Below, one piece after another: positions 2,374-57,996 of a stretch of DNA of 64,000 nucleotides (positions within the stretch are counted from its first letter, which is position 1; the number at the start of each line of letters is the position of its first letter). Origin of the DNA: Anaerohalosphaeraceae bacterium (GTDB lineage Bacteria > Planctomycetota > Phycisphaerae > Sedimentisphaerales > Anaerohalosphaeraceae); the NCBI GenBank assembly GCA_050309605.1, contig JBNRMN010000034.1:32001-96000 (forward strand), written 5' to 3'. The notes under the pieces are model-generated. The model was given only the letters and a program-made list of their open reading frames with translations, was not told where the DNA came from and searched no databases. The position numbers were made by a program, and so were the translations under genes.

Positions 2374-3546
2374 TTATGTGGTTTTTGGGAGCAATGCCGC
2401 CGCGGCGTCATCGACCAGCCAGTGTACGTTCTCCAGTACGGGCCATAAGACATACGCCGGATAACGCCCCGGATCGGGCGAACCGGAGATCAGATCGCGG
2501 AGAATCTCGGCCTTTTGCTCTCCTTGAACCAGGACGATTAGACGGCGGGCGTGCTGCAAGACCGGAGCGGTCAGGGTCACGCGATTGAAATGTGATTCAT
2601 TGAACACCGGCCAGGTTAAATCGTCGGCAACCGACACGCCCGGATCGTTCGGCAGCAGCGAGGCAATGTGGCCGTCCTGTCCCAGTCCGAGAACAATCAC
2701 GTCAAAACAGGGCACAGTGCCTTCTTCAGCGGCAAAGACATGACGCAACACCGTTTGATAGACATCGGCCGCGGTGACACAATCGTCATACTCGCCGTGG
2801 ATGCGATAGACCTGTTCGGACGGAATGGGAACAGCCTTTAGGAACGTCTCGGTCGCCAGGGCGTAATTACTGTGAGGCGAATCCGGCGGCACACAACGTT
2901 CATCCGCCCAGAAGAGGTACGTAGCGTCCCAGGGGACTTGCCCGATGTTGTCGGGCCGGGCCAATTGCTCAAAAAACAGCCGGGGCGTTTGTCCGCCGGA
3001 AAGGGCGGCATAAAATCGACCTCGTTCGGCGACGGCCTGACGAGCCGCGTCGATAAATTCTTCCGCCGCCTTCTCAGCCAGCGCCTTGGGTGAGGCAAGC
3101 CGTATGATAGTGGGCCGAGCGTCGGGCCTCTGCGCCGAACGCCGCTGGTCCAGAAAGGATTGGAGAATGACCGCTGCGGCCACGGCGTCGCGTCGTTTTT
3201 TCTTTTGACCGTGGCTCATCTGTCCGGGGGGAAAAAGCGAATCGGCTTCGTAGCTGCTGAGCCGCTCATCAAAAAAATCGATCGGTTTGGAGACCAGTTT
3301 CGACAGCGTTTTCGCAAACGCGCGGACCCGTTTTGCCTGCGGTCCTTCGGTGTCGTCCATATTCAGCGGCAATCCGAGCACCACCGCATCGACGGCCAGG
3401 TCATCCACAAGCTGCGCAATACGTTCTGCCAGATACAGCTCATTGTCCGTCTCAATGACCGAGTGCGGATTGGCCAGCGTCGCATCGGAATCCGAAACGG
3501 CCAATCCGGTACGTTTATTGCCGAAATCAACGCCTAAAAATCGCAT
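2374..3546 (-). CDS. ruvX-pgl: Fusion of RuvX/YqgF resolvase-like nuclease (N-terminal) and 6-phosphogluconolactonase (C-terminal)
   Basis: N-terminal LGVDFGNKRTGLAVSD, GLPLNMD, DERLSS, DAVAAAVILQ. C-terminal ALSGGQTP, FWADERCVPP..SNY, LGLGQDGHIASL, RVTLT. One continuous ORF. Confidence 0.9.
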   Translation of the reverse strand: MRFLGVDFGNKRTGLAVSDSDATLANPHSVIETDNELYLAERIAQLVDDLAVDAVVLGLPLNMDDTEGPQAKRVRAFAKTLSKLVSKPIDFFDERLSSYEADSLFPPGQMSHGQKKKRRDAVAAAVILQSFLDQRRSAQRPDARPTIIRLASPKALAEKAAEEFIDAARQAVAERGRFYAALSGGQTPRLFFEQLARPDNIGQVPWDATYLFWADERCVPPDSPHSNYALATETFLKAVPIPSEQVYRIHGEYDDCVTAADVYQTVLRHVFAAEEGTVPCFDVIVLGLGQDGHIASLLPNDPGVSVADDLTWPVFNESHFNRVTLTAPVLQHARRLIVLVQGEQKAEILRDLISGSPDPGRYPAYVLWPVLENVHWLVDDAAAALLPKTT

Positions 3547-29808: not shown

Positions 29809-32463
29809 ATGGCATCATCAATAAAATCGTCGGATAAGGAACCAACTAAGATGCACACCGTCAGGACATTTACGGTCAAGCCCTCGCTGCCGGAACCGTT
29901 GAAGGAGTTGTATGTTGTTGCAGGGAATCTGTACTGGTCGTGGCACTATGAAATCACGGAGCTGTTTCGCCGCGTCGATTACGACCTGTGGAAACAATGC
30001 GCTCATAATCCGATTCGTATGCTCGGCATGGCTTCGCAGGCCCGTTTGGAAGATTTGTCTCACAATGAAGGATTTTTATATCAATTGCGTCAAGCGCGCC
30101 AGAAGCTTGAAGAGACGCTTAATGCGCCGTCCTGGTTTGACAAGATCTACGCCCGTGAAGAGGCACGTCCGACCATTGCTTATTTCAGTGCCGAATTCGG
30201 CATTCACGAATGTCTGCCGATTTATTCGGGCGGCCTGGGAATTTTAGCGGGCGATCACCTCAAAAGCGCATCCGATCTGGGCGTTCCGCTGGTCGGTATT
30301 GGACTGCTGTATCAGAAAGGGTACTTTCGCCAATATCTTAACACGGACGGCTGGCAGCAGGAACATTATATTGAAAACGATTTTCACAATATGCCGCTTG
30401 AGTTGGTCCGAAAAGAAAGCGGCCACCCGCTGATCGTCAACATCCAGTTTCCCGGCCGCACGGTATCCGCTCAAGTCTGGAAAGTCATGGTCGGCCGCAC
30501 ACCGCTGTACCTGCTGGATACGAATCTGCCGAGCAATTCGACATTCGACCGGACAATTACCCAGACGCTGTACGGCGGCGATGCGGAAATGCGAATTTGT
30601 CAGGAAATCGTGCTGGGCATCGGCGGTTTGAAGGCCCTGTATGCAATGAACCTGGAGCCGACGGTGTGCCATATGAACGAAGGACACGCTGCGTTTATGG
30701 CGCTGGAGCGTGTTCGTCGGATTCGCAGCCGCTATAAGATGACCTACGAGGAAGCGTTCGAGGCGGCCAAGGCCAGCAATGTCTTTACCGTACACACGCC
30801 GGTGGCCGCCGGCAACGACGAGTTCCCCGTTGAGATGATGGACAAATACTTCGGCCATTACTACGGCAAACTCGGATTGAATCGCGAGCAGTTTCTGGCC
30901 CTGGGGCGCGTCCATCCGGACAACCCCGCCGAATCCTTCAAGATGCCTGTCTTGGCCATTCGCACCAGCGCCTATCGCAACGGCGTCAGCCAGCTTCACG
31001 GCGAGGTGTCCCGGACGATTTGGTCCGGCCTGTGGCGTGAACTGCCGACCGAAGAGGTGCCGATCAACGCCATCACCAACGGTGTTCACGCCAAGACGTG
31101 GCTCAGCGCCGAAGTCAACTTACTGCTCGAACGGTATCTCGGCGCTCGCTGGAGCGAAGAGATTGTTGATAAATCCATCTGGCACAACATCGACCAGATT
31201 CCGGATGAAGAATTGTGGCGGATTCATCAGCGCTGCAAAGAGCGGCTGGTCGGTTTCGCACGATCCCGACTCAAACGGCAGCTTCAACGGCGAGGCGCGT
31301 TCCATACCGAGCTGAGCTGGGCCGAGGAAGTGCTCGATCCCGAAGCGCTGACCATCGGTTTTGCCCGCCGGTTTGCTACCTATAAACGCGGCAATCTGCT
31401 GCTGCGTGAGCCGGAACGCTTGATTAAACTGCTCAACAACAGTGAGACGCCGGTCCAGTTTATCTTCGCCGGCAAGGCGCACCCGCGCGACACGGCGGGC
31501 AAGGAAATCGTGCGTCAATTGGTGCACTTTGCCACCGAGCATCCTGAAATTCGTCGGCGGCTGCTGTTCCTCGAAGATTATGACATTGATATTGCCCGGT
31601 ATATGGTGCAGGGCGTTGATGTGTGGCTGAACAACCCGCGTCGCCCGATGGAAGCCAGCGGCACCAGCGGAATGAAAGCCGCCCTGAACGGCGTGCTGAA
31701 TATGAGTACGCTGGACGGCTGGTGGTGTGAAGGCTACATTCCGGACGGCGGCTGGATCATCGGGGCCGGCGAGGAATACGACGATCTGTCCTATCAGGAT
31801 CAGGTTGAATCGCAGGCGATATTCAATCTGCTTGAGCAGGAAGTCGTGCCGCTGTATTTTGCCCAGTCCAAAGACCGACTGCCGCGGCGGTGGATACGCC
31901 GGATGAAAAACACGATCAAGTGGTGCGCTCCGCGGTTTAATACCAGCCGGATGGTCGCCGAATACACGCGCAAATTTTATACCATGGCCGACAGCAAGTG
32001 GCGCGAACTGACAGCCGATGACAGCGCTCGTGTTCGTGAGTTGGCGGCCTGGAAGAATTCGGTCCGCCACGCCTGGTCGGACCTGGACATTCAAAATGTG
32101 GAAGTCCAGACCCGCGACGGCGAAGTTTTTGCTCACTGGAACGGCCGTCATCCTGAGTTGCAGGTGGGTTCGGAAATCAAGGTGAATGCCAAAGTGCGGC
32201 TTGGCCGGCTCAATCCCGACGATGTGTCCGTTCAGATTTTCCACGGTGCGGTGGATTCGTCGGGACACATTGAAAATCCACAGATTGCCGAGATGCAGTT
32301 TTTGGAAGGCTCGCTGGACGAGACCAAAACCGCCTCGTTTGTCGGTTCCATTCCCTGCCACAGTTCGGGCAAGCATGGTTTTTCACTGCGCGTCTTGCCG
32401 CGGCACAAAGATTTGGTCGAACCGTATGAGCACGGGCTGATTTTGTGGGAATCCTCCAATTAG
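29809..32463 (+). CDS. glgP: Alpha-glucan (glycogen) phosphorylase
   Basis: AYFSAEFG, YSGGLGILAGDHLKSASDLG, HMNEGH, GFARRFATYKR, EASGTSGMK (PLP Lys), STLDGWW; start uncertain (29779-29851). Confidence 0.95.
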   Translation: MASSIKSSDKEPTKMHTVRTFTVKPSLPEPLKELYVVAGNLYWSWHYEITELFRRVDYDLWKQCAHNPIRMLGMASQARLEDLSHNEGFLYQLRQARQKLEETLNAPSWFDKIYAREEARPTIAYFSAEFGIHECLPIYSGGLGILAGDHLKSASDLGVPLVGIGLLYQKGYFRQYLNTDGWQQEHYIENDFHNMPLELVRKESGHPLIVNIQFPGRTVSAQVWKVMVGRTPLYLLDTNLPSNSTFDRTITQTLYGGDAEMRICQEIVLGIGGLKALYAMNLEPTVCHMNEGHAAFMALERVRRIRSRYKMTYEEAFEAAKASNVFTVHTPVAAGNDEFPVEMMDKYFGHYYGKLGLNREQFLALGRVHPDNPAESFKMPVLAIRTSAYRNGVSQLHGEVSRTIWSGLWRELPTEEVPINAITNGVHAKTWLSAEVNLLLERYLGARWSEEIVDKSIWHNIDQIPDEELWRIHQRCKERLVGFARSRLKRQLQRRGAFHTELSWAEEVLDPEALTIGFARRFATYKRGNLLLREPERLIKLLNNSETPVQFIFAGKAHPRDTAGKEIVRQLVHFATEHPEIRRRLLFLEDYDIDIARYMVQGVDVWLNNPRRPMEASGTSGMKAALNGVLNMSTLDGWWCEGYIPDGGWIIGAGEEYDDLSYQDQVESQAIFNLLEQEVVPLYFAQSKDRLPRRWIRRMKNTIKWCAPRFNTSRMVAEYTRKFYTMADSKWRELTADDSARVRELAAWKNSVRHAWSDLDIQNVEVQTRDGEVFAHWNGRHPELQVGSEIKVNAKVRLGRLNPDDVSVQIFHGAVDSSGHIENPQIAEMQFLEGSLDETKTASFVGSIPCHSSGKHGFSLRVLPRHKDLVEPYEHGLILWESSN

Positions 32464-48280: not shown

Positions 48281-49119
48281 TGCTCCAAAAAAGCGTCCAG
48301 CCGCGACAGCGAAGCTGCTGACAGACGTGCGCAGGAATCGGTTTCAATGCAGATAAGCGGTACGGTAAGTCGCTTGCGCAGATCGAATATCGCCGCCTTC
48401 CAGTAATCACAGAACGGATGCCGGATGACCATCGCGCCAAGAACCCGACGGCGATGGATCGCCTCGCTGAGCCGGTCGAAAAACGGCTCAGCCGGACGCC
48501 GCCAGATCGCAGGCGTTGTCAGATAATGGTCGGCCAGCGCCGCAAGCGGAGGGCTGTTGCCCGCTGTCGGCTCGAAGGGCGTTCGCAGATTTTGCCATGC
48601 CGATTCGGTGCCGTTGAAAACAATCGGCAGACCGCGTGCGGCCGTAAGTTGAGTCAGATCGAAAAAATCGCACTCAAACAACGGCCCGCCGATCACGGCA
48701 AGCCCCTTGTCCTGCGATTCGACGGTTTGGGATGCTGAGTGATTCATTGGATCGGTCAGGAGGGCGGGATTAGTTCGACCGCCGTCCAGCTCGACCAGAC
48801 CGCGTTCCAGCCGTTCAAACTCGTCGCAAAGGATGGTGCGTGCCGTCGGGCTGCCGGTTTTGGGGATGTTCAGCAAAAACGCCGGTTTGTCCGATTGAAG
48901 GGTGTGTCTCTCATACATACGCCTCATCTGGTCGCAGCCGGTGGTAAAAACCGCCGCATCGACCTGTCGGACCGCAGCGGAAAAGGCGTTTGCCCACGCA
49001 CAAAGACCTTCGATCTCGTCGCGTCGTTCCGGCGTTGGTTCGGGACGACAGGGCGTGTGGCCGCAGGCGGTAATCAGCTCAATCGGAACAAACGGACAAC
49101 AATAACCGATTCTTGCCAT
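48268..49119 (-). CDS. 2-hydroxyacyl-CoA dehydratase family protein, shortened (about 283 aa)
   Basis: MARIGYCCPFVPIELITACG, GLCAWA, TTGCDQMRR, PFCDYW, IETD...SRLDAFLE; ATG at 49119, 4 nt after the upstream stop. Confidence 0.8.
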   Translation of the reverse strand: MARIGYCCPFVPIELITACGHTPCRPEPTPERRDEIEGLCAWANAFSAAVRQVDAAVFTTGCDQMRRMYERHTLQSDKPAFLLNIPKTGSPTARTILCDEFERLERGLVELDGGRTNPALLTDPMNHSASQTVESQDKGLAVIGGPLFECDFFDLTQLTAARGLPIVFNGTESAWQNLRTPFEPTAGNSPPLAALADHYLTTPAIWRRPAEPFFDRLSEAIHRRRVLGAMVIRHPFCDYWKAAIFDLRKRLTVPLICIETDSCARLSAASLSRLDAFLEQWER

Positions 49120-49123
49120 CGTA

Positions 49124-50269
49124 TCAGCCTGTCCTTTCGCGCAGCGTTTCGATGAGCGCTTCGATGCGCACCGACAGCCGGGGCGAATCCGACGGCGCAT
49201 AATCGGTCACGATTTTCAAATAGCCCAGACCTTTGCGCTCGGCCAGTTGACGCACATGATAGGATTCCACATCGTATGTCAGACAACCCTGCCAGACGAG
49301 ATCGATGATGCAGTCGGCGCTGTAGTCCTCGGTCAATTGATCGAGCAGCTCAAGCCGTCGCGTATTCGGCGTCATCACCGAGCAGGGCAGATGGAAATAC
49401 GTCTCGGCAATCGCCTCCAGCGGATCGATGGCCTGTTCCTCTACATCGTCAAGAACGGGTTTGATGCCGGTACAGTTTTCCATACACACCACCCGTGCAC
49501 CGGTGTGTTCGATTAAATCAACAATACGCTCGGCGCCGTGGACAGTCGGCACGCCGGTCAATAACACACGAATGCCGCTGTCGATGGTTGAACCGGCTGT
49601 GTCGGCAGATTCAAGCAATCGCTCATATTCATTCAAATCGTCCTCGATGCCGGAGATGATGCTTTTGAAGTCCAGCAGCCGTCGGCCTGTCCACGGCGGC
49701 CGGGGGCGTTTCATTTGCTCGGCCAGTTGCCGCCGCAATGCGCGTTCGCGATTCATTCGTTTGATGGCGCTGCGCAGCGCGTCGTCCGTGATACGGCACG
49801 ACAGACGGTCTTCGAGTACTGCTTTGAGTTTTCGCACCTCGGCCAGCCAATGCGTTCGGGCATTCGGGTCGTCGGCCTTTTGCGGCAGTTCAAGGATGTG
49901 CATCGGACGTTGCTGTGCCATTAGCTCGAACATTTTCTTCTTGCCGTCGCAGGTGGTCTCAGCCACGATCAAATCGGCCATAGCCAGAAAGGGGTTGCTG
50001 TCGGTGATGTGGTAGCCATAGGTGGATTTAATCAGGGGGCACAGGCCGGCGGGCAGGTCCTGTTCGGCCGGGGCAATTGTTTCCAGCGACCCGCCGCACA
50101 GACACACCGGCACACCGCCGGCGGCAAGAATCAGTTCGCGCGGTGTGTATTCGCACATAATCCCGACGATGGGACGACCCTGGGATTGGGCGGCTGTCGC
50201 AAAGGCGTAACAGTGTTGAATCATTTGATCGAAGCGGCATTGTATCTGCGGGTTTTGGTTCTGTGTCAT
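49124..50269 (-). CDS. Double-cubane-cluster-type / 2-hydroxyacyl-CoA dehydratase family anaerobic reductase
   Basis: GIMCEYTPRE, LCGG, LCPLIKSTYG, AETTCDGKKKMFE, ENCTG, LPCSVMTPN, GCLTYDVE, TDY....RIEALIE. Confidence 0.85.
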   Translation of the reverse strand: MTQNQNPQIQCRFDQMIQHCYAFATAAQSQGRPIVGIMCEYTPRELILAAGGVPVCLCGGSLETIAPAEQDLPAGLCPLIKSTYGYHITDSNPFLAMADLIVAETTCDGKKKMFELMAQQRPMHILELPQKADDPNARTHWLAEVRKLKAVLEDRLSCRITDDALRSAIKRMNRERALRRQLAEQMKRPRPPWTGRRLLDFKSIISGIEDDLNEYERLLESADTAGSTIDSGIRVLLTGVPTVHGAERIVDLIEHTGARVVCMENCTGIKPVLDDVEEQAIDPLEAIAETYFHLPCSVMTPNTRRLELLDQLTEDYSADCIIDLVWQGCLTYDVESYHVRQLAERKGLGYLKIVTDYAPSDSPRLSVRIEALIETLRERTG

Positions 50270-50308
50270 TTGAATGTTCCTCTGACGATCAGGGGCTCAA
50301 ATCGATTC

Positions 50309-51124
50309 TTATGCGGTTTTTACCGCGACGAACAAAGCCTGGATGATTTTGCCCTCGCGGGCCAGTTTTTCCATGGCGGCCATCTCTTTGCCGATGGTGT
50401 TGAGCAGGGTCTGGTCAAAGCCGATAATTTTCAGGGCGTCATACGTAAGCTGCGTACCGACCATTTTTTGATAGAGTTCCACATGGTCGGCAAAGCGGCC
50501 GGTGTCTTCCAGGTGCTTGACGGTGCAGCCGCTTTGTTCAAGCAGAGCGGCGTATCCGCTGCGGCTCTGAAGGTTGGGGAATTTCATAAACGCCAGTGTC
50601 CGCTGCAATTCCTCGGCGGTCATCGGCACATCGCCGAGCACCCAGTCGGTAAAGGCAATCGTACCGCCGGGGCGGACGATGCGGCAGGCCTCGGCAATCA
50701 TCGTGTCTTTGTCTTCCACATAGCACCAGGCGTCCTCGCCCCAGACGAAATCGGCGCTGGCAGCGGCAAGTCCGCTATTGCAGACATCGGCCAGGACAAA
50801 CTGAATCTTATCGTCAGAATGTTCTTCCTGGCAACGTTTTTTACCCAGTTCGACCATCGCTGCTGTGGCATCAACGCCGGTCATGGCGGCGACGCCGCAG
50901 AACCGCACGAGGAAGCGCATCCCTGCGCCGCTGCAGCAGCAGAAATCCACGCCTTTGGTACCGGGCTGAATTGCGGCCTTCTTGGCCAGATCCATCGACG
51001 AGGTCAATCCGCCGATATGAATCTGCTCGCCCATGAGCAATTCCCAGAGTTTGCCTTCGGGGCCGCTATAAACCGTTTGAACCGCTGCCAGCGGACTGTT
51101 TGATTGTTGTGCTGTTTGCTTCAT
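50309..51124 (-). CDS. Class I SAM-dependent methyltransferase with Cys-rich motif I
   Basis: GEQIHIGG, VDFCCCSGAG (motif I), TGVDAT, FVLADVC, DAWCYV, RIVRPGGTIAFTDW. Confidence 0.88.
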   Translation of the reverse strand: MKQTAQQSNSPLAAVQTVYSGPEGKLWELLMGEQIHIGGLTSSMDLAKKAAIQPGTKGVDFCCCSGAGMRFLVRFCGVAAMTGVDATAAMVELGKKRCQEEHSDDKIQFVLADVCNSGLAAASADFVWGEDAWCYVEDKDTMIAEACRIVRPGGTIAFTDWVLGDVPMTAEELQRTLAFMKFPNLQSRSGYAALLEQSGCTVKHLEDTGRFADHVELYQKMVGTQLTYDALKIIGFDQTLLNTIGKEMAAMEKLAREGKIIQALFVAVKTA

Positions 51125-51140
51125 TGTGTAATCCGTTGAT

Positions 51141-51174
51141 AAAAAAAGCGGGCCGAAACTGTTTTTCGACCCGC
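51141..51174 (-). terminator. Intrinsic terminator between the small selenoprotein ORF and the methyltransferase operon
   Basis: GCGGGTCGAAA-AACAG-TTTCGGCCCGC (11-bp stem, one G-U) followed by T7. Confidence 0.8.
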
Positions 51175-51203
51175 CGATACTTGCTCTGTTGTGTGAGGAC
51201 TGC

Positions 51204-51464
51204 TTATCGCGTCAACTCCTCAATCGAATACCATCGGTTTTCCTGGTGGACGGTAAACGGTCCGGAATCGATGTCGATTTCGATGCGGAACCGCCTGCGG
51301 AAGTCCTCTGGCACTCGCCACGAGTACCGGCAGGTGCTGCCTCACCCATACTCCATAGAGCCGGTGCGCAGGAAACCGCCGTCTTCAAGCCGAGCTGTTT
51401 CGAAGTTTGTATAGAAAAACGAATAGCCAGGAGATTGCGAATGTTTTTTTTCGATTCCCGTCAT
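51204..51464 (-). CDS. Putative small soluble selenoprotein (86 aa, Sec41, G-U-G-S-T-C)
   Basis: MTGIEKKHSQSPGYSFFYTNFETARLEDGGFLRTGSMEYG-U-GSTCRYSWRVPEDFRRRFRIEIDIDSGPFTVHQENRWYSIEELTR. Single in-frame TGA at 51344-51342; SECIS-like hairpin 13 nt downstream; divergent from selA. Confidence 0.75.
51310..51328 (-). promoter_or_regulatory. Putative bacterial SECIS element
   Basis: GGUACUCG-UGG-CGAGUGCC: 8-bp stem, UGG loop, starting 13 nt after UGA. Confidence 0.7.
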
Positions 51465-51539
51465 GACTCCGATTCCAATGTGTCCGTCAATTCTTTAAAG
51501 ACGTTTGCCGTACGACGGTGTTACGAAGATTTTTGTTAT

Positions 51540-51664
51540 TTTTTACCGTTTTAACAGAAAAAAAGCAAGCGGATTCAACGACATTTTTGTATTGTACAAA
51601 AAAAGCACAAAATGTCTTGAATTTAAGTGTCTTGGCTTGCTTTTTGGGCGGATCGGCGTACAAT
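51540..51664. promoter_or_regulatory. Divergent promoter region (selenoprotein operon / selAB)
   Basis: Plus: TTGCTT(51637)-16nt-TACAAT(51659). Minus: TTGCTT(51568)-17nt-TAAAAA. Nested inverted repeats lie between them. Confidence 0.55.
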
Positions 51665-51710
51665 AACATCGCAGGCAGGGACTGATTGATCGGACTACGA
51701 AAGGCGGCTT

Positions 51711-53111
51711 ATGGAAGCACAGATTCAGGCGCAGCTTCGGCAGATTCCTTCGGTGGATGCGGTGTTATCGCAGATTCAGGCACATCCGGCGGCCCGGCGT
51801 GTGGGTGCGGCGATGCGGACGCAACTGGTGCGCGAGGTGATTGAGACAATCCGCCGGCAGGTGCGGGACGGGACATTTTCAGCCGATGCCGATATGGCCG
51901 GGGCGGTGCGGGACCGGATCGAGCGGCGACTGGAAGCGGTGGCGGGGGTGTTTTATCGACGGGTGGTCAATGCGGCCGGGATCATTCTGCACACCGGACT
52001 GGGACGGGCGCCGCTGGCGGGTGAGGTCCTGGAGCAGATCAGCTGGCAGTTGGGCGGGTATTCGCTGTTGCAGGTGGATGTCGAGGCGGGCAAGCGGTCC
52101 TCGCGAGATGGACGGATTGAAGACTTGCTCAAACTGCTGACCGGCGCCGAAGCGGCGACCGTGGTGAATAATAACGCCGCGGCCACGGCGCTGGTGCTGA
52201 ACACCATTGCCGCAGGCAAAGAGGTCATCGTGTCGCGCGGACAGCTCGTCGAGATCGGCGGGGCGTTTCGCCTGCCGGACGTGATGGCCTTTAGCGGGGC
52301 CAGGCTGGTCGAGGTGGGTACCACCAACAAGACGCACCTGCGGGATTATGAGAATGCGATTACCGAAAACACCGCCGCGATTTTGCGGGTGCATCCGAGC
52401 AATTATAAGATTACGGGTTTTACGAGCGAAGTGCCGCTGGAGGAGATGGTCAAGCTGGCCCACGCCAACGGCCTTTTGCTGTTTGATGATGTCGGGGCCG
52501 GGTCGCTGATTGATTTTTCGCGATTTGGATTTGAAAAAGAGCCGACGTTGATGGAATCGGTCGCCGCCGGGGCCGATGTGATTACCTCCAGCGGCGACAA
52601 ACTCATCGGGGCCTCTCAGGCGGGGATCGTCCTTGGCCGTGCCGAAATCATCCAGAAGGTGCGCAAAAATCAATTTGCGCGGATCGTGCGGGTCGATAAG
52701 TTTACGCTGGCGGCGTTGGAGGCGACGCTGAAATTGTTTCTGGATGAGGCGGCGGTGTTGGAAAAGGTGCCCGCCTTGCGGCTGATGCTGCGTTCGGCGG
52801 AGGAGATTCAGCGGCAGGCCGAGCGCATCTGCGAACGGGTGCAGAGGGCCTGCCCTGATGCGTGCGTCTCACTGCTGCCGGGCCAGTCGCAAATCGGAAG
52901 CGGCTCACTGCCCGGACAAAACCTGCCGACGACCCTGGTGGCAATTGCGTCGCCGCATCAATCCGCTGCGGCACTGGCCGACACGCTGCGGGGCGCTGCG
53001 ACGCCGGTCTTTACGCGCATCGGCGATGATCGTGTGCTGATTGACCCGCGCACGCTGCTGGACGGCGATGAGGCGATTTTGATTGAGACGCTGGTTGAAA
53101 TTCTGCATTAA
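51711..53111 (+). CDS. selA: L-seryl-tRNA(Sec) selenium transferase
   Basis: RVVNAAGIILHTGLGRAPL, VVNNNAAA, SRGQLVEIGGAFRLPDVM, EVGTTNKTH, HPSNY, SGDKLIG (PLP Lys), GSGSLP. Confidence 0.97.
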   Translation: MEAQIQAQLRQIPSVDAVLSQIQAHPAARRVGAAMRTQLVREVIETIRRQVRDGTFSADADMAGAVRDRIERRLEAVAGVFYRRVVNAAGIILHTGLGRAPLAGEVLEQISWQLGGYSLLQVDVEAGKRSSRDGRIEDLLKLLTGAEAATVVNNNAAATALVLNTIAAGKEVIVSRGQLVEIGGAFRLPDVMAFSGARLVEVGTTNKTHLRDYENAITENTAAILRVHPSNYKITGFTSEVPLEEMVKLAHANGLLLFDDVGAGSLIDFSRFGFEKEPTLMESVAAGADVITSSGDKLIGASQAGIVLGRAEIIQKVRKNQFARIVRVDKFTLAALEATLKLFLDEAAVLEKVPALRLMLRSAEEIQRQAERICERVQRACPDACVSLLPGQSQIGSGSLPGQNLPTTLVAIASPHQSAAALADTLRGAATPVFTRIGDDRVLIDPRTLLDGDEAILIETLVEILH

Positions 53112-53144
53112 AACAAACCATGAAGATCGTTTCAAGACATTATG

Positions 53145-53179
53145 CTCCGAACTAAGAACTACGAACTAAAAACTCCGAA
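53145..53179 (+). repeat. Five degenerate tandem heptamers in the selA-selB spacer
   Basis: CTCCGAA CTAAGAA CTACGAA CTAAAAA CTCCGAA. Confidence 0.6.
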
Positions 53180-53181
53180 TT

Positions 53182-55089
53182 ATGACCCAAATCAACATCA
53201 CTCTCGGCACCGCCGGGCATATTGACCACGGCAAGACGGCGTTGATCCGCTTGCTGACCGGCTGTGAGACCGACCGGCTCAAGGTCGAAAAACAGCGTGG
53301 CATGAGCATTGAGCTGGGCTTTGCCCCGTGTCTGCTGGGGGATAGGGAGGTGGGGATCGTCGATGTCCCCGGACACGAACATTTCATCAAGACGATGGTC
53401 GCCGGCGCCGCGGGCATTGACGGAGTGCTGTTTGTCGTGGCCGCCGATGACGGGATTATGCCTCAGACGCGCGAGCATCTGGAGATTTTGACCCTGCTGG
53501 GCGTGCGGCACGGCCTGACCGTCCTGACCAAGATCGATCGTGTTTCGGAGGAGCGCGTCGAGGCAGCGATCGATGAACTCCGAACGTTTTTGTGCGGCAC
53601 GTTTTTGCATGATGCCCCGATTTGCCCGATGTCCAGCATCACCGGGCAGGGATTCGACGGATTCTATACGGCGTTGAAAGATGTGGTCGCTTCCATATGC
53701 CCCAAAAGCATTGACGGGGTGTTTCGTCTGCCGGTGGAACGGGCGTTTTCGGTCAAGGGCTTCGGCACAGTGCTCAGCGGCATCCCCGCCGCCGGTTCGG
53801 CACAGATCGGCCAGGAAGTCGTCCTGCTGCCGAGCGGACAAACCGGACGCATCAAGGCGATACAGGTTTACGGCAAGCCGTCCGAATACGTGCGAAGCGG
53901 CCAGTGTGCGGCGCTGAATATCCCGCAGATGGATTATCGTACTATCCGACGGGGCGACGTGTTGACGGTAGAGGGGTATTTTTCTCCGACGCAGTGGTTT
54001 TTGTGTGCCGCCGCGGTGCTGCCCGGTCAGTCGCTGCCTGTTAAAAACGGTGCTGAGATGAGGTTCCACACCGGCACGGCGGATGTTGCGGCCAATGTTT
54101 ATCGTGTTGAGCGAGACGAGTACTTTGCCGACGGCGACTTCCTGCTTCAGATTCGTGCGCATACGCCGCTTGTGGCCGCCCCCGGCGACCGGTTTATCCT
54201 GCGGTCGCTGTCGCCGATGCGTACCGTCGGCGGGGGGCGCATCCTTCAGGCGATGTCATCGCGTCTTCGGTATGCTCACGGGCGGGGGCCGGCCTATGCC
54301 AAAGCACTGGCCGAGGCGCAGCGGAATGAAACGGCATTTGTCGCTTTTGCGGTGGAATCGGCGGCGTCCGGCGTCGCACGGCTTGATGATCTCACGTCGT
54401 TTACCAAGCAGAAGCCTGAGCGGGTGCGGCGGCTGCTGGCGGATTTGCTGCAGACACAAACCGTTGTCGCTTTGTCCGGCGATGTGTATATCCACGCCCG
54501 AAAACTGTCGGTGATGTGCCGGCACATCACCGAAACGCTTGAGCAGTTTCACGCCGACCATCCCGAACGGCCGGGCATGGATGCGGAAGCTTTAGCCGAG
54601 CGGCTTGAACTGGGCAAAGGCGTTTTTGATGCCCTGCTGGAAGTTGCCCTGAAACAAGGGACGGTCGTGCGGCGTCTGGATCGGCTGGCACTGCCGTCGC
54701 ACACCGAAACCTGCAATCCGGCTCTGGCAAAACGGCTCCGGCAAATCGAAACAGCGTTCCTGAAAAACCTGTTTGCTCCTCCCGGCCTCAATGAACTGAC
54801 GGCCGAGTCCGGCCTGACCCCATCACAAATCCGGGAGGCCATTACGATTTTGATCGAACAGAAAAAACTATTTTATGTGGACCGAACGATGGTATTCCAC
54901 GCCGAGGCCGTAAAGCAGGCCAAACGCCGTATTGCCGAGCATATTCAGGGCCAAGGGCGGGGCCGTCTGGAAAGCGTCGCATTCAAATACTTGATTGATA
55001 CGACCCGAAAATACGCCATTCCGCTGCTGGATTATATGGACAAAATCGGCTTTACCCGTCGGGTCGGCAATACACGTTACTTGAAATAA
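53182..55089 (+). CDS. selB: Selenocysteine-specific elongation factor
   Basis: GTAGHIDHGKT, DRLKVEKQRGMSIELGF, DVPGHEHF, TKID, VERAFSVKGFGTV, C-terminal SECIS-binding winged helix TTRKYAIPLLDYMD...TRRVGNTR. Confidence 0.97.
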   Translation: MTQINITLGTAGHIDHGKTALIRLLTGCETDRLKVEKQRGMSIELGFAPCLLGDREVGIVDVPGHEHFIKTMVAGAAGIDGVLFVVAADDGIMPQTREHLEILTLLGVRHGLTVLTKIDRVSEERVEAAIDELRTFLCGTFLHDAPICPMSSITGQGFDGFYTALKDVVASICPKSIDGVFRLPVERAFSVKGFGTVLSGIPAAGSAQIGQEVVLLPSGQTGRIKAIQVYGKPSEYVRSGQCAALNIPQMDYRTIRRGDVLTVEGYFSPTQWFLCAAAVLPGQSLPVKNGAEMRFHTGTADVAANVYRVERDEYFADGDFLLQIRAHTPLVAAPGDRFILRSLSPMRTVGGGRILQAMSSRLRYAHGRGPAYAKALAEAQRNETAFVAFAVESAASGVARLDDLTSFTKQKPERVRRLLADLLQTQTVVALSGDVYIHARKLSVMCRHITETLEQFHADHPERPGMDAEALAERLELGKGVFDALLEVALKQGTVVRRLDRLALPSHTETCNPALAKRLRQIETAFLKNLFAPPGLNELTAESGLTPSQIREAITILIEQKKLFYVDRTMVFHAEAVKQAKRRIAEHIQGQGRGRLESVAFKYLIDTTRKYAIPLLDYMDKIGFTRRVGNTRYLK

Positions 55090-55141
55090 GTCTGCTTGAA
55101 TCCATCGGCAAAAAAGGATATATTGGTCAAGAGAGGTGTTT

Positions 55142-55402
55142 ATGCGATACGGTGCAATTTCTGCCAAACTGTTGGCGCTGGGGGTGGGCAGTTTCGTCGT
55201 GCTGGTGGTTCTTCAGCCGGGGTGAGGCAATCCCTTTGGAGTGCTTGGAGCACTCCTGATGATGGTTAGTATGCCGCTGGCGCTGGTCTTCGGCGTTATC
55301 GGCGTGTTTCTGGACAAACCCCGCTGGCCGGCGATCATTGCCGCGCTGATTGCATTGCTCTTGCTGTTGCCGGTCGTGATGAACCTGGCCGGCTGGTGCT
55401 AA
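55142..55402 (+). CDS. Putative small 3-TM membrane selenoprotein (86 aa, Sec28, C-terminal Cys86)
   Basis: GAGG RBS 5 nt before ATG. MRYGAISAKLLALGVGSFVVLVVLQPG-U-GNPFGVLGALLMMVSMPLALVFGVIGVFLDKPRWPAIIAALIALLLLLPVVMNLAGWC. TGA at 55223-55225; SECIS-like hairpin 12 nt downstream; directly after selB. Confidence 0.78.
55238..55256 (+). promoter_or_regulatory. Putative bacterial SECIS element
   Basis: GGAGUGCU-UGG-AGCACUCC: perfect 8-bp stem, UGG loop, starting 12 nt after UGA. Confidence 0.72.
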
Positions 55403-55404
55403 GG

Positions 55405-57996
55405 TCAACGGCTTTCAAAGGTGCGCCCGCCGGAGCCGACCGATTCAATGACCCACCAGCCGTCCGATTGGACGGCCTCAGTCGGTTTGCCGTTCATCAG
55501 CACGGCCGGGCGGTCGCTGTGCTGAACGGGCAGATATACCTCTGCGGTCATATTGGCCGGCAGGGTGATGTCCAGTTCAAAGGTCCCCGCCGTATCGCGA
55601 AAGGCCGCCTCGATAGTCCCCCGAATCGTCGGAAGCCTGAGCTGTGCCCATTCCAGCCCGCCGGTTTGCGGACGGATGCGAATGCGACCGTAACCGGCCT
55701 CGATCGGTTCAATGCCGAACAGTCGGCGGGGGATGATATTGAGCGGGGCACTGGCCCATGGGTGGGCATAGCTCATATTGGGCTTGCCGGACGGATCCCA
55801 TGACTCAGTGGTGATAGTCGCGCCGAGGTGATGGATCATATGATGCCAGGAATGTTTCTCGGTCGAGGTCATCAGTGCCAGCGCCGCATCACCGCGGTCG
55901 GCGTTATACAGCGCATCGAGCAGGTATTGCGCCCCATACACGCTGCAAACCATTCCTTTCTCGATCAGAAACTGAGCCACTAACTTTTTGCGTTCCGGCG
56001 GCGTGACCGTCAGCGCCAGCGGAAAGAAGTTCGCATGAGCAGCGCTGTGGGCGCTGTCGCGTCCGTCGCGATAGATACCGGATTGTGCATCGAACAGATG
56101 GGTGTTTATTGCATTTTTGACCTGCTCGGCTGCGGCGGCGTAACGAGTTGGGTCGTTGGTTTTATCCAATACGCCGGCGATGCGGCTGAGCAGCTCCACG
56201 GCCTTATAATGAAAGGCATTCGTTACGGTGTTGATCGGCGTAAATTCATAGCCGTCGCGATAATACGCCGGCCAATCCACCAGCACGCGGTCGTTGTCGC
56301 TGTCGTGTTTTTCGACCAGTCCCTGTTCATTGACAAAATCGCACAGCGTTTTGGTCGTCAGGATATCATAGTGTCGGCGAATGGATTTTGCGTCGCCGGT
56401 GGCCATATAATCGGCCCAGGCCATCAGCAGGCAGGTTTGCTTGTACTCGGTCGGCCAGGTCGGGCGATGATACAGGTATTCGTTGGTATAACGGGCAAAC
56501 GCATATTCACGATCCGCCGCGTAATGGGAGAGCATATTGATGTAGGCGTCGCCCTCATACGGGCCGCGCTCGCGTGTCGGACAGTCCTGATACAGGTCGA
56601 TGTTGGTCGCCTTGATGCTGTAATGGCATAAGTCCCAGACTTCATTCAGGATGGTACTGGAACTGTCAAAGGCCGCCGCGTCCTGATCAAACGGATACTC
56701 AAGCGTCACAGTGCTCAGCACGAAGTCATCCGTCGGCAGGTTCAGCAGCTCGCCGTAGCGAAACCCGCGATAGCCGAAGTTCTCGATCACTTGCAGCCCG
56801 TCGCGCAGCGTCCATTTCTCGGCATAGGTAACGCCCGTGCGGGCTTGGTGACGAACGGTCTTATCGCCGTCCAGCTCTTCGCCGAGGCGTACTTCGATCT
56901 GTCGTCCGTTCGTGCCTTCAATGGACAGACGCACACACCCGACAATCTCCCTACCAAAATCAAAGAAATAATGCCCTTCGCTTTTTTTGTGCATCAGGAC
57001 GGGCTTGACCTCTTCCATTTGCACATTGCGAATCGGCTGAGCAACCAGTCGCTCGGCATAATGCGGTACGGTGCGCACCGAACGCCAGCCGCTGTCGTCA
57101 AAGTCGGTCCTCAGCCAGCCGTGCGGTTCATTGCGGGCGTCGATATGTTCCGGGCCGGCCTCGTAATACCAAAAAAACTTCGGCCCCATATTATAATAAG
57201 GATCGGCGTTGATCCCCCGCCACGTATCGTCTGTGCCGAATGTGCCGACGGCGTCGTCTTTGTAGAAGACTTTGATCTCGGCGATAAAATCTTTGGCGCG
57301 ACCATTGGAAAAACAGATGGCCCCCAGCACATGACTCGTTCCGGCGGTCAAATGCTCAGTGATATCGAAAACGTTGTAGGGCACCTTGCCGTCGTAGCCT
57401 CGCGCCGGCCCAATGCCGATGGGTGTGTCGTTGACATAGAATTTGAAGACATACTGGCGCGACGGATGGGTATCGCGCCCGCTGACAAATGCGAACGCCT
57501 TCTCGATGGGTTTGTCAGGCAGTTCTATCGTATCGCGCAGGAACACATATTTATTTTCTGCCGCTGCCCAGATCGGACGGGCGGACCAGGTGTCTTTCAG
57601 TGCCGTGACGAACAATTGCGGCTCGGCATACGGCCCCGGCTGGTTTCTGTTGTTCCAGGTCCGAACCGTCCACCGGTACATCCGCCCGGGTTGCAGTTCC
57701 GGCCCGGCATACGGCACGGCAATCGACCGCGGCGAAGCGACTTTGCCGGAATCCCACACCAGCGTCCGCTTGCTGCTGAGGCCGGTATAGACCTGAATCT
57801 GATAAGCCGTCTGCACGGCGTCAGGCTGCGGGTCGTTGACAATCCAGGAAAACGCCGGCGTAAAATCCTCAATTCCCAGCGGCTCGGGGTTTAAGTCACA
57901 CAGCAAACCCGTCGGTTGTTGCGGCGGTCTGGCACACCCGCAGGCCGCCAACAGCGTACCGGCCAAGAGAACCTTACAGCAGTGTCTTAAGTTCAT
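55405..57996 (-). CDS. Alpha-L-rhamnosidase-like lipoprotein (GH78)
   Basis: Lipobox LAAC; QTAYQI..WDSGKV, FDFGRE, YRGFRY, DCPTRERGPYEGD, GATITTESW, SYAHPW; start uncertain (57996-58008). Confidence 0.9.
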   Translation of the reverse strand: MNLRHCCKVLLAGTLLAACGCARPPQQPTGLLCDLNPEPLGIEDFTPAFSWIVNDPQPDAVQTAYQIQVYTGLSSKRTLVWDSGKVASPRSIAVPYAGPELQPGRMYRWTVRTWNNRNQPGPYAEPQLFVTALKDTWSARPIWAAAENKYVFLRDTIELPDKPIEKAFAFVSGRDTHPSRQYVFKFYVNDTPIGIGPARGYDGKVPYNVFDITEHLTAGTSHVLGAICFSNGRAKDFIAEIKVFYKDDAVGTFGTDDTWRGINADPYYNMGPKFFWYYEAGPEHIDARNEPHGWLRTDFDDSGWRSVRTVPHYAERLVAQPIRNVQMEEVKPVLMHKKSEGHYFFDFGREIVGCVRLSIEGTNGRQIEVRLGEELDGDKTVRHQARTGVTYAEKWTLRDGLQVIENFGYRGFRYGELLNLPTDDFVLSTVTLEYPFDQDAAAFDSSSTILNEVWDLCHYSIKATNIDLYQDCPTRERGPYEGDAYINMLSHYAADREYAFARYTNEYLYHRPTWPTEYKQTCLLMAWADYMATGDAKSIRRHYDILTTKTLCDFVNEQGLVEKHDSDNDRVLVDWPAYYRDGYEFTPINTVTNAFHYKAVELLSRIAGVLDKTNDPTRYAAAAEQVKNAINTHLFDAQSGIYRDGRDSAHSAAHANFFPLALTVTPPERKKLVAQFLIEKGMVCSVYGAQYLLDALYNADRGDAALALMTSTEKHSWHHMIHHLGATITTESWDPSGKPNMSYAHPWASAPLNIIPRRLFGIEPIEAGYGRIRIRPQTGGLEWAQLRLPTIRGTIEAAFRDTAGTFELDITLPANMTAEVYLPVQHSDRPAVLMNGKPTEAVQSDGWWVIESVGSGGRTFESR

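Follow-up and report, generated by a model that had tools for sequence, protein, structure and literature searches.

The selenocysteine (Sec) insertion sequence (SECIS) hairpins of Escherichia coli fdhF and Moorella thermoacetica fdhA are bound by the winged-helix domains of SelB, the elongation factor specific for Sec. In these elements, a minimal upper hairpin lies approximately 11–13 nucleotides (nt) after the UGA, and a G in the loop together with the following G or U forms the contact with SelB; in E. coli, the loop consists of four bases, GGUC, and a U is bulged. A general definition of bacterial SECIS elements is given by the model of Zhang and Gladyshev (bSECISearch), which is quoted in PMC13188914: a stem of 4–16 base pairs (bp), a loop of 3–9 nt with a G among the first two nucleotides that is usually followed by G or U, a distance of 16–37 nt from the UGA to the loop, and a minimum free energy of ≤ −7.5 kcal/mol. 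Here we analyze two such hairpins, located in two small genes that flank selA and selB in an Anaerohalosphaeraceae bacterium (Planctomycetota). The analyzed stretch of 64,000 nt (positions 32,001 to 96,000 of contig JBNRMN010000034.1, assembly GCA_050309605.1) is hereafter called the window, and coordinates refer to it unless a contig is given.

selA, encoding L-seryl-tRNA(Sec) selenium transferase (51711..53111, + strand; TIGR00474, E = 2.3e-165, 550.9 bits, cut-off 267.9), and selB (53182..55089, +; TIGR00475, 323.5 bits, cut-off 242) lie between P0001 (51204..51464, −) and P0002 (55142..55402, +). Each of the two small genes is an 86-codon reading frame with an in-frame UGA, as read from the sequence and its translation and, for P0002, also from homologues. 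In P0001 the UGA is codon 41 (51342..51344, −; …MEYG-U-GSTCRYSWRVP…, where U is Sec), and in P0002, a membrane protein gene ending in a Cys codon, it is codon 28 (55223..55225, +; …VLQPG-U-GNPFGVLG…). Both share the sequence GGG-UGA-GGC-A followed by a spacer, an 8-bp stem, and a UGG triloop. The hairpin of P0001 (51310..51328, −), GGUACUCG-UGG-CGAGUGCC, begins 13 nt after the UGA; its arms (51328..51321 and 51317..51310) enclose the loop at 51320..51318, and one of the eight pairs is G-U. The hairpin of P0002 (55238..55256, +), GGAGUGCU-UGG-AGCACUCC, begins 12 nt after the UGA, with the arms at 55238–55245 and 55249–55256, the loop at 55246–55248, and Watson-Crick pairs throughout. This common arrangement on opposite strands had been described in an initial annotation of the window and was confirmed by the sequence. 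The loop UGG is the Trp codon of an S-W-R motif in P0001 but is out of frame in P0002 (cuU GGa, Leu-Gly), indicating that the common element is an RNA feature and not a shared peptide.

The two hairpins are similar to the fdhF and fdhA elements in the distance from the UGA to the upper hairpin and in the G of the loop with its following G, and the loop differs from that of E. coli in being a UGG triloop. The SelB of this genome carries C-terminal winged-helix domains (PF09106, residues 451–503; PF09107, SelB-wing_3, residues 600–634) as does the SelB that reads fdhF and fdhA. In isolation, each hairpin is the minimum-energy structure (−12.0 kcal/mol for P0001; −12.9 kcal/mol, z = −3.85, for P0002), and the UGA-to-loop distance is 21 nt (13 + 8) and 20 nt (12 + 8), respectively. 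Every term of the general model, as far as it is quoted in PMC13188914, is satisfied by both: the stem-loop lies inside the coding region directly 3' of an in-frame UGA, the 3-nt loop has a G at position 2 followed by a G, the stem is 7–8 bp, the loop is 20–21 nt away, and the energy is approximately −12 kcal/mol. What differs is the very narrow geometry, with a triloop and a fixed distance, which holds across approximately 70 elements of the two gene families; no bulge or lower helix was supported by covariation among them. The initial annotation had proposed a lineage-specific SECIS architecture, but the elements fall inside the general model quoted in PMC13188914, and both hairpins are ordinary bacterial SECIS elements of narrow, uniform geometry and no new type. 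Being ordinary, they can be found with the general bacterial model, and the interest lies in the genes that they mark.

The initial annotation also regarded the different stem sequences of the two unrelated genes as covariation. The real covariation is found within each family. In the P0001 family, 55 distinct contexts were compared: 49 have a UGG loop and three a UGU loop, 34 have a 7-bp and 17 an 8-bp stem, and 51 have a spacer of 13–14 nt. Pairing is kept in 90.5% of the alignment cells, four of the eight pairs change on both sides, and the covariation score was reached by none of 500 shuffles. The stem combines UCG…CGA with either UAC…GUR (Tyr…Val) or CUC…GAG (Leu…Glu), and where the Ser is replaced with Thr or Ala (ACG or GCG), the Arg codon CGA becomes the synonymous CGU, which restores the pair. 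The 14 sequences of the P0002 family, aligned without gaps, have the loop UGG in 12, UGC in one, and UGU in one; 94.6% of the cells are paired, seven of the eight pairs change on both sides, and the score of 0.827, compared to 0.248 in the shuffles, was again reached by none of 500. At most 58% of the cells paired in slid controls. Compensatory changes were thus observed in both families. A 5-bp mini-hairpin just after the UGA in the P0001 family was also considered and was rejected: 83% of its cells can pair, but 425 of 500 shuffles scored as high, so that codon content explains the pairing.

The in-frame TGA is also conserved. It was present in all 57 P0001 matches, which were found in 18 of 61 relatives. 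In addition to P0001, the source genome contains two further copies on contig C2, both with an in-frame TGA, which were detected when the genome was scanned, by codon usage, for in-frame TGAs with coding signal both before and after them. The first has a 986-codon open frame (413 codons before and 572 after the TGA; 962 residues from the start codon) and carries a laminin-G-like domain; the second is a membrane protein of approximately 380 residues. Both share the peptide and the hairpin of P0001. Across an evenly sampled set of 201 genomes of the phylum, 17 contained the P0001-type domain, with 37 of the 44 matches carrying the TGA and seven lacking it. A DNA-pattern scan of species-representative genomes gave at least 134 loci, with the motif in an open frame in at least 124 and approximately seven that look like chance matches; those listed belong mostly to Sedimentisphaerales, Phycisphaerae, Pirellulales, and Planctomycetaceae, and a few are labelled Verrucomicrobiota, Hydrogenedentota, Zixibacteria, or Acidobacteriota. 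TGA-carrying homologues therefore exist in other Sec-using organisms. For P0002, 18 matches were found. The best 14, in 13 genomes including the source genome, have one in-frame TGA each, and the four without it are the weakest (E ≥ 6.5e-4) and lie in long unrelated frames. Residues on both sides of the UGA are conserved, the frame is open across it in 14 of 14, and the ratio of nonsynonymous to synonymous substitution rates (dN/dS) downstream of the hairpin was 0.12–0.45 in eight pairs, showing that purifying selection acts on P0002 beyond the UGA.

The genome, which is 99.7% complete, possesses the whole Sec machinery. selD is present without an internal stop, and the tRNA-Sec gene (selC) adjoins it, so that selA, selB, selC, and selD were all found. 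selD lies outside the window (source genome, G000, C64:22338–23949) in a 575-codon open frame that is longer than the 311-position model, and tRNA-Sec is approximately 600 nt downstream on the same contig. In five relatives, selD shares a contig region with selA and selenoprotein genes.

The conserved in-frame TGA, the covariation within each family, the purifying selection beyond the UGA, and the presence of the machinery led us to consider it very probable that the genome's own SelB and tRNA-Sec read both UGAs as Sec, and that each is followed by an ordinary SECIS element with a 7–8-bp stem and a UGG loop. In this respect the initial annotation was right. When the UGA occupies the A site of the ribosome, the hairpin would be positioned at the mRNA entrance, where the C-terminal winged-helix domain of SelB would bind the loop and deliver Sec-tRNA(Sec); the two unrelated genes would then look alike because one SelB reads both. 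We infer SelB binding and actual Sec insertion, as well as a redox role for the U-x3-C motif of the P0001 family.

Several observations weigh against the assignment of the two UGAs as Sec codons or against the integrity of the genes. In a 66-nt context the P0001 hairpin loses to an alternative pairing and is not the minimum-energy fold (z = −0.68). No Rfam SECIS family was matched in the window at 49000–57000 with E ≤ 10, where only three weak non-SECIS matches appeared. The covariation counts use related sequences, and the shuffle controls consequently overstate their significance. Among the 99 library homologues of P0001 that cover the Sec site, residues other than Sec or Cys are found at that position (11 Gly, 11 Arg, nine Leu, nine Ser, and six Trp), which may be genuine substitutions or may stem from gene callers that translated TGA with another code. 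No Cys homologue of P0002 was found in one word-indexed search limited to proteins of 47–151 residues. Finally, the orthologue from the same genus matches P0001 only over residues 33–84 (77% identity), the first approximately 32 residues showing no conservation, so the gene may be decaying. Other members of the family, some of them next to selA, have open frames of 213–254 residues, and a Met four codons before the Sec (M-E-Y-G-U) is present in both genomes of the genus. P0001 may therefore be N-terminally truncated as predicted here, and its true start codon is uncertain.

The identical 10-nt context of the two UGAs, GGGTGAGGCA, was pointed out in the initial annotation. It occurs three times in the window, at 51338–51347 (−), 55220–55229 (+), and 3088–3097 (+), and five times in the 3.4-Mb genome on both strands, about the number expected from its length according to our own arithmetic. 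The copy at 3088–3097 was rejected as a SECIS context because it has no hairpin (fold z = +2.19). The codon before the UGA in the P0001 family varies among relatives (GGG 27, GGC 21, GGT 7) and likewise among the at least 124 public loci (GGC 70, GGG 41, GGA 7, GGT 6). The tenth letter, A, is G in most members of the family, and in three independent public runs from near-identical strains position 51338 is C, which makes the tenth letter G and replaces Ser with Gly after the Sec of P0001. Since the preceding Gly codon varies and the tenth letter differs even among near-identical strains, the identity of the 10-mers is in part Gly-Sec-Gly coding and in part coincidence, most of the 10-mer being Gly-Sec-Gly codons. 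The shared GGN-UGA-GGC mainly reflects a Gly-Sec-Gly peptide motif, with a possible nucleotide preference for GGC after the UGA.

This preference is the main support for the strongest rival explanation, in which GGN-UGA-GGC(R) itself belongs, at the nucleotide level, to an extended and lineage-specific recoding signal that, for example, weakens termination by release factor 2 or contributes a contact with SelB or the ribosome. Where a Gly codon follows the UGA, it is GGC in 43 of 47 cases (P0001 family) and 11 of 12 cases (P0002 family), compared to 49.8% of the Gly codons in the long open reading frames (ORFs) of the genome, and where Ser follows the Sec its codon is AGC, which gives the context RGC in both unrelated families. 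Binomial values overstate the effect, however, because the sequences are related and the genomes from which they stem differ in codon usage; the 5-bp mini-hairpin just after the UGA does not covary, and the variable preceding codon and tenth letter speak against such a signal. We regard an extended signal as unlikely, albeit as the most probable of the alternatives.

A second alternative assigns the hairpin downstream of selB to regulation: instead of, or besides, serving as a coding SECIS, it would be a SelB-binding element that tunes selAB expression. In E. coli, a SECIS-like element in the selAB leader tunes the expression of these genes. P0002 starts 53 nt after the selB stop, its hairpin, on the same strand, follows that stop at 133 nt and is probably part of one transcript with selB, and the gene order selA-selB-P0002 recurs in several relatives, as judged by coordinates. 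On the other hand, the frame across the UGA is kept in 14 of 14 homologues, the residues on both sides are conserved, dN/dS beyond the hairpin is 0.12–0.45, and in two relatives (G016 and G033) the P0002 homologue is far from selA or on another contig. We consider this explanation improbable, although the hairpin may have a regulatory role besides its coding one.

If the UGAs were true stops, the hairpins would be terminators or chance structures and the genes would be pairs of short unrelated ORFs. Two observations point in this direction. Gene callers split P0002 at the UGA, and only its 47-residue downstream fragments were found in the protein collection. Furthermore, a loose version of the pattern (TGA, 19–22 nt, a stem of ≥6 bp, and a TGN loop) gave 133 sites in the genome, where trinucleotide frequency predicts 120; the genome contains 37 hairpins that combine an 8-bp stem with a TGG triloop. 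The initial annotation had named, as a refutation, occurrence at background frequency after true stop codons together with a different structure in known selenoprotein genes; the loose pattern does occur at that frequency, but the case for recoding rests on other evidence. The frequency of the pattern alone gives no significance, which comes instead from the position flanking selA and selB, the continuity of the frames, and the comparative data. The paralogues, in which the frame stays open for hundreds of codons both before and after the TGA, the conservation of the TGA in 57 of 57 and 14 of 14 sequences together with the protein sequence across it, and the existence of Cys homologues all argue against termination, and neither hairpin is followed by a U run. 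True stops are thus very improbable. A reading of TGA as Gly or Trp throughout the organism (genetic code 25 or 4), which might be suggested by the Gly and Trp residues at the Sec position of 11 and six library homologues, can practically be dismissed, since the genome scan gave only four in-frame TGAs with two-sided coding signal and a SECIS-type hairpin, the other 64 scan candidates look like adjacent genes, and the complete Sec machinery is present.

Two further results of the genome-wide hairpin analysis are noted here. A filter demanding a hairpin and no longer ORF in another frame was too strict, because it lost P0001 itself and returned mainly terminators. In the hairpin census there was an excess of TGA triloops (121). 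It originates from a clustered regularly interspaced short palindromic repeats (CRISPR) array that lies outside the window, on contig C13; the repeat of this array forms a hairpin of 8 bp closed by a TGA triloop.

The two hairpin families were then combined into a covariance model (R1). In the source genome it gave four matches with E ≤ 5.6e-7, the next having an E-value of 6.1. Among the 61 relatives, 19 genomes yielded 79 matches (E ≤ 0.01) and the other 42 yielded none. According to a comparison of coordinates by eye, 70 of the 79 sites are places already known from the protein searches, and the remaining nine belong to the same two families (seven P0001 and two P0002). Hence the proposal of the initial annotation that the pattern could be used to mine selenoproteins was borne out to the extent that two more genes in the genome and 79 sites in relatives were obtained, but all of them belong to the same two families; no third selenoprotein family was revealed by scanning the source genome and the 61 relatives with the model. 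The P0001 family co-occurs with selA. selA was found in 16 of the 61 relatives, and 15 of these contain the P0001 family, one genome (G019) having selA only; the three genomes that possess the P0001 family but lack selA are 76–83% complete. Because the model separates Sec-using from non-Sec-using relatives almost perfectly (19 versus 42), automatic annotation is feasible. Gene callers split both families at the UGA, and members are consequently mis-annotated, at the at least 124 public loci and in the four genes of this genome.

Apparently, P0001 and P0002 represent two undescribed selenoprotein families of Planctomycetota. No match to the Pfam and NCBIfam (release 20.0) models was found for P0001, P0002, or the Sec region of the two C2 proteins, and the profile search of the PDB gave no match for the P0001 family. 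The AlphaFold model of the P0001 segment is beta-rich (mean predicted local distance difference test score, pLDDT, 73.8), and a Foldseek search with it against the PDB gave no match at E ≤ 0.001 and only weak rows resembling beta-sandwiches. Our literature search, whose reach did not extend to Haft and Gwadz 2023 or Haft and Tolstoy 2025, gave no description of either family; the families of these two papers should be covered by the NCBIfam release 20.0, in which no match was found. Planctomycete selenoprotein candidates are listed in Table S9 of PMC4807772, and none of those in the table is recognizably of the P0001 or P0002 family.

The P0001-type domain is characterized by the motif [FY]G-U-GG[TV]C-x-[YL]-S-W-R-[VE]-P. 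It was found in secreted or membrane-anchored proteins of 200–990 residues, in up to approximately 10 copies per genome among the covariance-model matches in relatives, and is often clustered, by coordinates, with selA, selB, and selD. A profile search of 1.84 billion representatives gave 118 proteins, of which 99 cover the Sec site. Cys occupies the Sec position in 27 of the 99, mostly as C-x3-C, with which the U-x3-C of the family aligns. Three Cys-type homologues (P0013, P0020, and P0027) have a fused C-terminal thioredoxin-like domain with C-x-x-C, which hints at a thiol or selenol redox function of the P0001-type domain. Redox selenoproteins in which Sec is paired with Cys and which have Cys homologues, such as thioredoxin-like and AhpD-like proteins, show the same relationship between U-x3-C and C-x3-C. 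The P0001 family differs from them in having no Pfam, NCBIfam, or PDB sequence match and no Foldseek match at the above threshold, and in its occurrence as many copies per genome in secreted or anchored proteins.

The Trp of the S-W-R motif is kept in 25 of the 27 Cys forms, while its neighbours vary, suggesting that a Trp codon was already in place when the loop of the P0001 family arose on it. Because their codons pair, the residues on either side, Ser…Arg (UCG…CGA) as well as Tyr…Val or Leu…Glu, would have become fixed. In the P0002 family, Leu-Gly codons would have supplied the same loop, out of frame. The P0001 family is a clear case of overlapping constraints, with codon-level and RNA-level ones acting on the same 19 nucleotides.

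P0002 has three hydrophobic helices, as predicted by reading the sequence, and the motif QPG-U-GNP. Most of its homologues (L003–L019) carry a Cys within the last three residues. If the N-terminus is inside, Sec28 and the C-terminal Cys of P0002 would both be located at the outer face of the membrane, so that a selenenyl-sulfide pair could form.

Formate dehydrogenase is often described as the anchor of the Sec trait. No molybdopterin enzyme (PF00384) was found in the source genome, and its selD has no stop, so that it offers no known selenoprotein gene for comparison. Among the relatives 23 of 24 formate dehydrogenase-like matches have no stop; L083, L085, and L087 have Cys at what we take to be the Sec position of formate dehydrogenase. 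The remaining match, L087 (G034:C512, at approximately 2344), has a lone TGA (…QGACD-TGA-GALP…) at what is presumably a Met position. It was rejected as a Sec codon, having no SECIS-type hairpin, and is probably a sequencing error or a pseudogene. In five complete relatives, no stop was found in SelD, and none in the 35 matches to AhpC-TSA genes. The two families seem to be the reason why the lineage keeps the Sec machinery, and the presence of the trait without the usual enzymes raises the question of which function of the new proteins needs selenium.

A more comprehensive reading, which we put forward tentatively and hold to be doubtful as a whole, is that the Sec apparatus is kept, here and patchily in Planctomycetota, for two extracytoplasmic families that form one system, with no classical selenoenzyme. 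U28 and the C-terminal Cys of P0002 on the outside would form a selenol/thiol relay that serves the secreted or anchored U-x3-C proteins with their many copies, and the SECIS hairpin would have dictated S-W-R and the Y…V or L…E pairs in the protein sequence. If this is true, the P0001 family would offer a clean example from nature of amino-acid evolution under the constraint of an RNA structure.

The three public runs, which are independent of one another, cover the locus with approximately 98% identity to the window. Among the 40 of 80 differences listed, none is at either UGA or inside the hairpins. Two of the three runs have a 7-nt insertion (GAACTAA) at position 53148, in the repeat-like spacer between selA and selB. 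Directly downstream of P0001, two genes lie on the same strand (49124–51124, −). The first of these neighbours is an S-adenosylmethionine (SAM) methyltransferase, whose best NCBIfam match, the DVU_1556 family, scored 58.5 bits, under the cut-off of 155; the second is a double-cubane-cluster anaerobic reductase, with 406.5 bits against a cut-off of 350.

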